Of a stretch of 64,000 bases of DNA, positions 23,246 through 23,549 are shown in pieces. The stretch is from the IMG/VR virus record IMGVR_UViG_3300021400_001615, positions 64,001 to 128,000 of that record. One strand, given 5' to 3'. The translations under genes and the position numbers were made by a program. This DNA is from a virus. Lineage: Duplodnaviria; Caudoviricetes. Under the pieces are notes generated by a model. It saw only the letters and a program-made list of their open reading frames with translations. It ran no database searches and was not told where the DNA came from. Numbering within the stretch: position 1 is the stretch's first letter; each line of letters starts with the position of its first letter.

Positions 23246-23549
23246 AGCCCCTTAGCATAATTTGGTAATGCACCGGTCTCTTAGCTTAATTTGGACACCT
23301 AGATACGAAAGGTCTAGTGTGAATTGTGCCTAATTCGACGAAACTCTCATATGAGACAACGACGAGCTAAATCAAAATATATTTTTGTAAATGTGTAGAG
23401 ACTATATAGCACACATCTAAGTCCTATCGGATATGATGAAGAAATAGTCCAGACCACAACGCATATGCGGCTATGGTGACATAGAGTGGTAAGAAAACCG
23501 TGATATCCCTCTGAAGGAGGTTATCTGGGTTCAAATCCCAGGGGGGCTG
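23246..23549 (+). tRNA. Intron-split amber-decoding tRNA (CUA), exons 23246-23281 and 23494-23549
   Basis: Acceptor AGCCCCT/GGGGGCT + G73; D stem GCAT/ATGC; spliced anticodon arm CGGT-CT CTA AA-ACCG; 23-nt variable region; T arm CTGGG-TTCAAAT-CCCAG. Confidence 0.88.
23282..23493 (+). ncRNA. Small group I intron (Azoarcus/IC3-like, 212 nt) at tRNA position 35/36
   Basis: AATTCGACGAAAC, CAACGACGAGCTAAA, TGTGTAGAGACTA, GAAGAAATAGTCC; IGS TTT-GGA; terminal G. Confidence 0.9.

Follow-up and report, generated by a model that had tools for sequence, protein, structure and literature searches.

The suppressor tRNAs published for TAG-recoded phages are uninterrupted genes (Ivanova 2014; Devoto 2019, PMC6784885; Yutin 2021, PMC7886860; Borges 2021, doi 10.1101/2021.08.26.457843). 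About 60% of the TAG-recoded genomes have no detectable suppressor, for which "divergent" tRNAs have been blamed (Ivanova 2014; PMC6784885; PMC7886860; doi 10.1101/2021.08.26.457843), and papers up to August 2026 still list this lack in more than half of such genomes as unexplained. An intron in a suppressor is mentioned in none of these four studies, and literature searches found no phage suppressor tRNA described as carrying a group I intron. Introns in other phage tRNAs have been described in Lak megaphages, where "enigmatic" introns of ~93 nt were reported in Tyr, Phe, Gly, and Thr tRNAs (Devoto 2019, PMC6784885). They were placed by eukaryote-mode tRNAscan, without an Rfam class (PMC6784885).

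The window analyzed here is a stretch of 64,000 nt, bases 64001-128000 of a complete virus record of 160,883 bp with direct terminal repeats; coordinates refer to the window unless the genome is named. The initial annotation had described two tRNA halves around a 212-nt group I intron, whose joining would create a CUA anticodon. Both halves and the intron (RF00028, 50.5 bits) were located at 23246-23549, with the following features in and just upstream of the gene:

23200-23239, plus strand: intrinsic-terminator-like hairpin (putative terminator) with an 11-bp stem and a T-run, ending ~7 nt upstream of the tRNA 5′ end
23246-23281, plus strand: tRNA 5′ exon, 36 nt, with the acceptor 5′ strand, D arm, anticodon stem 5′ strand, and loop positions C32 U33 C34 U35
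23282-23493, plus strand: group I intron, 212 nt, without an ORF and with final omega-G23493, from the RF00028 match (50.5 bits), family alignment, and covariation
23290-23299, plus strand: internal guide, TTT (P10 with AAA of exon 2) followed by GGA-C-ACC (P1 with GGU-C-UCU of exon 1)
23494-23549, plus strand: tRNA 3′ exon, 56 nt, with A36 A37 A38, anticodon stem 3′ strand, long variable arm, T arm, acceptor 3′ strand, and discriminator G
23503-23524, plus strand: long variable arm hairpin, with the 7-nt loop CUCUGAA (23509-23515), a copy of the tRNA-Gln(CUG) anticodon loop

When the exons were joined in silico, a 92-nt cloverleaf with the loop CU-CUA-AA was obtained, which ARAGORN called as tRNA(cta), so that the intron interrupts the CUA anticodon between U35 and A36. 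Eight 7-nt loops are possible at this locus, and CTCT/AAA (the slash marks the junction here and below) is the sole one that combines an exon-final U, an intron-final G, and U33. The splice-site rules are satisfied by the U23281.G23293 pair at the 5′ site and by G23493 at the 3′ end. The annotated split gene and its CUA loop are confirmed. Two other junctions were rejected. The intron-mode call of ARAGORN (tRNA-Leu AAG, intron 23280-23489) breaks the group I rules, yields 95 nt with a mispaired stem, and conflicts with an intron-less allele, and a 3′ cut after G23469, the last base of the Rfam alignment, disagrees with the family-conserved 3′ end and exon 2, which begins at 23494.

The assignment to the tRNA family (RF00005) rests on the ARAGORN call on the joined exons, on the score of a natural intron-less allele (L107, below), and on the pairing of the family cloverleaf, which is 87.8% paired compared with 40-52% when the partners are slid. 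In 18 family members, pairing reaches 92.6% in the anticodon stem built by the two exons across the intron, and all 4 of its pairs show compensatory changes. Because the intron splits the anticodon, the gene is hidden from tRNA finders. Default ARAGORN reported zero tRNAs on the 64-kb window, and the Rfam tRNA model recognized the 3′ half alone in the unspliced locus (13.5 bits). The expectation that standard scans miss the gene was therefore borne out for the two finders tried.

The RF00028 match spans 23278-23469 and scores 50.5 bits against a curated cut-off of 50 (E 5.7e-12, local search of 501 nt). This borderline match was dropped by the filters in whole-window scans, and the same match was recovered in a whole-genome search with lax filters. 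The following elements of the ribozyme were recognized:

23299-23317, plus strand: P2, a hairpin whose L2 loop is a GAAA tetraloop, from the family alignment and the structure test
23325-23329, plus strand: P3 5′ strand TGTGC, partner GCACA at 23409-23413, 5/5 pairs changing on both sides
23335-23366, plus strand: P4-P5 domain, P4 TCGACG with CGACGA including one A.A mismatch, and a short P5 hairpin
23400-23404, plus strand: P7 5′ strand GACTA, partner TAGTC at 23445-23449, the guanosine-binding helix, invariant in 25/25 family members
23414-23438, plus strand: P8, UCUAAG...UAUGA, a variant of the 11-nt GAAA-tetraloop receptor
23453-23490, plus strand: P9.0, ACCAC with GTGGT, around a pair of hairpins, of which the second has a GUGA tetraloop

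The P8 motif is receptor-like and probably such a variant; the relative L066 has the canonical CCUAAG...UAUGG in its P8. As initially annotated, the guide GGA (23293-23295) pairs with the exon UCU over 3 bp (U23281.G23293, C-G, and U-A), with the U.G pair at the splice site. Past a C/C mismatch, ACC and GGU could add three more pairs to P1. P10 could arise from pairing of TTT (23290-23292) with the first AAA of exon 2, as had been proposed; across the family, P10 ranges from 0 to 3 bp and is not conserved. In a set of 27 distinct introns, guide and exon sequences covary (CUCU with GGAG, GCUGU with GCAGC, ACUU with GAGU). Downstream of P9.0, which shows C-G/U-A covariation at alignment columns 230/285, the 3′-terminal motif GTGGTAAG is family-conserved, and the 3′ end GTRGTAHG is common to all resolved introns of the family.

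Covariation was tested on a hand-drawn structure in 18 family members, with slid-partner controls and 500 shuffles. Paired cells made up 79.5% of the total compared with 30-43% when the partners were slid, and the covariation score was 0.43 compared with 0.07-0.14. Changes on both sides were seen at 34 pairs, and 0/500 shuffles matched the observed values. P3, P4, P8, and P9.0 all contain changes on both sides while P7 is invariant. Moreover, the window intron keeps every invariant core position of the 25-member family. These results indicate that the intron is a conserved, covarying ribozyme structure. Its motifs resemble those of Azoarcus-type IC3 tRNA introns, which suggests that subgroup.

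The split gene lies on the plus strand at genome 87.2 kb, inside a TAG-rich late block, in agreement with its annotated placement. The best match of the terminase among named phages is to SPbeta/phi3T-like Bacillus phages (44%), YonG-like genes neighbor the terminase relatives, and an integrase-like gene is found at 24609-25661, indicating that the source phage is probably SPbeta-like and temperate. A Zeta crAss-like identity, guessed from the size and the many introns, was ruled out by the same terminase matches and YonG-like neighbors. A search for relatives of the locus with the upstream 141-aa ORF found none. Three further group I introns are present in the structural gene block, at 16154-16432, 16557-16819, and 20880-21221 (RF00028 scores of 60.7, 100.9, and 65.7 bits), and endonuclease ORFs follow at 16942-17961 and 21399-22679 (HNH).

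Natural relatives of the split gene were sought by exact pattern. The P7 and J8/7 sequences of the window intron were found at 61 IMG/VR loci. For the junctions, every upstream U was joined to every downstream G and the products accepted by ARAGORN were kept if the loop contained the junction, U33 and a purine at position 37 were present, and the anticodon stem was the best obtained. Seventeen other IMG/VR loci resolved as CUA tRNAs with the identical split position, and 12 resolved as split sense tRNAs (Leu UAA, Asn GUU, Lys UUU, Ile UAU, and Arg UCU). TAG read-through raises ORF coverage strongly at the split-CUA loci but not at the split-sense loci. At two of the latter (L019, Leu UAA; L037, Lys UUU), TGA and not TAG read-through raises ORF coverage, from 0.54 to 0.83 and from 0.32 to 0.71, respectively, so the intron family also lives in TGA-recoded phages. 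By blastn, the intron core was also found in the Lak-B1, B3, B6, and B9 megaphages, where it splits a CUA tRNA at CTCT/AAA; that tRNA has 73 nt and a short variable loop. An Rfam search of the Lak-B1 intron gave no hit, though it is homologous by blastn and alignment. The proposed search of other recoded phages for split CUA tRNAs was thus positive in 17 IMG/VR contigs and four Lak-B genomes.

In bacterial and archaeal genomes, the exact core pattern was present at 78 loci, mainly in Bacteroidales. Of these, 32 resolved as tRNA-Leu(UAA) split at CUU/AAAA and 0 as CUA. Their hosts include Prevotellaceae, Cryptobacteroides, Paludibacteraceae, and Rikenellaceae and are nearly all Bacteroidales; the introns of these genes measure 210-437 nt, and examples of the loci are L278, L286, L303, L313, and L346. 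Because these 32 split Leu(UAA) genes have the same core, the window intron is assigned to the lineage of tRNA-Leu(UAA) introns. In the CUA loop an almost identical insertion site, YU/AAAA, is available, shifted by one base: the intron sits not at U34/A35, the Leu(UAA) placement, but at U35/A36 of a CUA tRNA. Judged from these likenesses, it is related to, and predicted to work like, the Leu(UAA) intron family in another host gene and site. The tRNA-Leu(UAA) of this phage itself (genome 30169-30252, minus strand, outside the window) is uninterrupted, whereas its CUA tRNA holds the intron; tRNA-Leu(UAA) is the usual home of the family.

Intron-less alleles were sought in IMG/VR with a pattern of the joined anticodon arm and the variable-arm motif. 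This pattern matched 83 loci, 72 of which were called tRNA(cta) (47 distinct sequences), and intron-less long-arm CUA tRNAs occur on at least 80 IMG/VR contigs. For further tRNAs, the pattern GAAAACCG..YTYTGAAG was rejected as too unspecific, with L022 as its sole true hit. The tRNA of L107 has no intron, reads continuously through GGTCTCTAAAACCG, is identical to the joined exons of the window at 87/92 positions, and scores 47.3 bits versus 29 on the Rfam tRNA model. The L107 phage is related, its flanks being 65-73% identical to genome 66-72 kb. L066, another related phage, retains the intron (79% identity over 298 nt). In Lak-B2, B4, B5, B7, and B8, an intron-less Sup-CTA precedes the downstream flank that follows the split gene in B1, B3, B6, and B9, and the tRNA table of Devoto et al. 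lists Sup-CTA at coordinates matching B2, B4, and B5 (PMC6784885). The tRNA body differs between the intron-less and the split Lak-B genes (loci compared, L014:459-777, split, and L078:548-620, intron-less), and the Lak-B2 tRNA, which lacks the intron, agrees with the exons of L040 and L045 once these are joined. This exchange resembles a cassette replacement or an exon co-conversion.

With a probability of about 0.8, we read the locus as a functional phage amber suppressor tRNA gene that is split between U35 and A36 by a small, ORF-less, mobile or once-mobile group I passenger, TAG being read as Gln. The primary transcript would self-splice by guanosine attack after U23281, which P1 with GGA would hold in place. 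Exon ligation would follow, after omega-G23493, to give the 92-nt tRNA with the loop CU-CUA-AA. The spliced tRNA, charged with Gln by host enzymes, would then decode the ~270 in-frame TAGs of the late and structural genes. An intron of the tRNA-Leu(UAA) lineage would thereby have settled in a gene that the phage cannot lose, at the Leu(UAA)-like site YU/AAAA. We infer self-splicing, Gln charging, and passenger status each from the sequence comparisons above, the last because the distribution of the intron is patchy.

The alternative that survives best is the one put forward in the initial annotation, in which a rate-limiting or conditional ribozyme step would time the change from code 11 to code 15; in a temperate phage, such a step would also silence the suppressor in lysogeny. 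The split gene is the sole CUA tRNA of the complete genome and lies within the TAG-rich late block, the integrase-like gene and the SPbeta-like relatives mean that silence in lysogeny would matter, and the intron has been kept in the related L066. However, near-identical intron-less tRNAs serve related recoded phages, the presence of the intron varies among sister Lak-B genomes, and the same family occurs in sense tRNAs and bacterial tRNA-Leu genes, where a switch is unneeded. No conditional splicing element was seen in the intron, and cellular GTP and Mg are normally saturating for group I splicing. Moreover, the position in the late block behind the terminator-like hairpin could by itself supply timing. 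A code switch gated by splicing is therefore unlikely. It is equally doubtful that a ribozyme gate delays TAG read-through relative to transcription, or stops leaky prophage transcription from yielding a toxic suppressor; if true, such a gate would be an RNA-catalyzed check on a change of genetic code. Thus, of the original interpretation, the group I intron splitting an amber-decoding anticodon stands, but the regulatory switch finds no support: the intron is optional in close relatives, patchy in sister genomes, shared with sense tRNAs and bacterial genes, and without a visible conditional feature. The passenger reading would be compatible with a co-option of splicing kinetics in this phage.

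The need for a suppressor is evident from the coding sequences. In-frame TAGs number 272, and the plus strand at genome 70-150 kb accounts for 237 of them. A frame of 4753 codons (window 30590-44851) is open only with 92 TAGs read through, another of 2487 codons (window 49304-56767) contains 21 TAGs, and read-through opens many more. At 29-30 kb the genome encodes its other tRNAs, for Thr, Gln(UUG), Met, and Leu(UAA). A second CUA tRNA was not detected in the complete genome, even with ARAGORN thresholds of 80% and Rfam E values up to 1. An intact CUA tRNA elsewhere, which the initial annotation had named as a refuting observation, is accordingly absent from this genome, so splicing would be required for TAG read-through by a phage-encoded tRNA.

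Several tRNA-like RNAs were noted in passing. One at window 1888-1957 (plus strand; RF00005, 36.7 bits) is overlooked by default ARAGORN; its loop reads UUUGGGA, with UGG as the anticodon, and its T loop (GGCGGCA) is aberrant. In the tRNA cluster, a 125-nt element at genome 29321-29445 (L001:881-1005, minus strand) appears as a nested or doubled tRNA-like RNA with a single acceptor stem on the outside and two each of D-arm-like and T-arm-like parts. A degenerate tRNA-like sequence lies next to it (genome 29201-29274) and was given a four-base anticodon (ccat) by relaxed ARAGORN.

The demand for a suppressor bears on a further alternative, namely that the gene is dead, the tRNA having been inactivated by the intron or by decay of its core while a host or undetected suppressor reads TAG. 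The borderline Rfam score, a contiguous P1 of only 3 bp, and the A.A mismatch in P4 would fit such decay. However, all family-invariant core positions are kept, the helices covary, the exons retain the full cloverleaf, and 3-bp P1 helices are found in other family members too. Together with the ~270 in-frame TAGs, terminase included, which demand a suppressor where no other was found, this makes a dead gene very improbable.

The amino acid inserted was deduced from the terminase gene (7308-9059), which contains five TAGs. At three of the five, between 106 and 120 of 120 homologues have Q, and the same three are CAA or CAG in L076 and L077, homologues that translate by table 11. Because the terminase TAGs align with conserved Gln codons, TAG most likely encodes Gln. 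The acceptor end of the split tRNA (A1-U72, G2-C71, G73) is the same as that of the tRNA-Gln(UUG) of the phage. No RF-1 domain release factor, GlnRS/GluRS (class Ic synthetase), or GatB domain was found among the phage proteins of the complete genome, and the combination of a suppressor tRNA with a phage aaRS and/or release factor that defines the "code change module" of Borges et al. does not occur here. The suppressor is most likely charged with Gln by host enzymes. Insertion of Ser (or Leu or Tyr) instead is highly improbable. The long variable arm and discriminator G73 do give a class II (Ser-type) look, and the anticodon arm resembles the tRNA-Ser(CGA)/supD type, but the terminase sites align with invariant Gln and not Ser, which rules out the reading TAG = Ser, and the Gln-like acceptor end and the Gln anticodon-loop copy in the variable arm agree with the alignment.

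That copy was followed in related tRNAs. All five distinct long-arm CUA tRNAs found via the intron, and not via the arm motif, have a YUYUGAA loop. An unbiased sample of long-arm CUA tRNAs was then surveyed, with 49 distinct arms; 27 have a YUYUGAA-type loop closed by at least 3 bp, and about a dozen more, by reading, have the loop closed by 2 bp. Across 51 sequences, the loop-closing stem is 95.4% paired, with compensatory changes at 3/3 pairs. In the same set, the 1-72 pair is unpaired in 19/51 sequences, and most rows have a G after the acceptor stem, as in the tRNA of the window. The minimum-energy fold of the window arm (5 bp and a GAA triloop) is disfavored by this family covariation. 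The arm loop may act as a decoy anticodon for glutamine-charging enzymes. The copied Gln loop suggests how a CUA tRNA could be recognized by Gln-charging enzymes that read the anticodon, and the idea could bear on the design of engineered suppressors.

Split CUA tRNAs occur in unrelated recoded phages, that is, in an SPbeta-like phage, in Lak megaphages, and on many IMG/VR contigs. Since they are invisible to standard finders, they would explain part of the gap of missing suppressors, and they can be found with a simple model. A phage can, on this evidence, rest its entire late proteome on a single ribozyme reaction, and would thereby offer a natural setting in which to ask if self-splicing is limiting for gene expression or sets its timing.

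The locus was compared with four known systems. In recoded phages, the described suppressors are likewise CUA tRNAs serving late genes with TAG as Gln, with presumed host charging. The "enigmatic" Lak introns also lie in phage tRNA genes, and in the same phage group that carries the split CUA tRNA; the group I intron in the Sup-CUA of Lak-B1, B3, B6, and B9 is absent from the tables of Devoto 2019 (PMC6784885). The Azoarcus pre-tRNA-Ile(CAU) intron (IC3) is also ~200 nt and ORF-less with a 3-bp P1; its L2 is a GAAA loop, its P8 carries an 11-nt receptor motif, and its P9 has a GNRA loop, but it sits in another tRNA and at another insertion point. The fourth comparison is with the tRNA-Leu(UAA) introns of cyanobacteria and plastids, and here also of Bacteroidales. 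Like the window intron, these are small, ORF-less group I introns of the anticodon loop, in which the exon-final U pairs with a G of a short guide and the 3′ exon starts with AAAA. Their core is identical over the search pattern (P7 5′ strand and J8/7-P7 3′ strand), and they share the 3′ end GTRGTAHG. On the other hand, the guide is GGA or GGAG in the window family and GAGU in tRNA-Leu(UAA), and the window intron lies one base further 3′ (U35/A36 and not U34/A35), in a phage tRNA that reads a stop codon.
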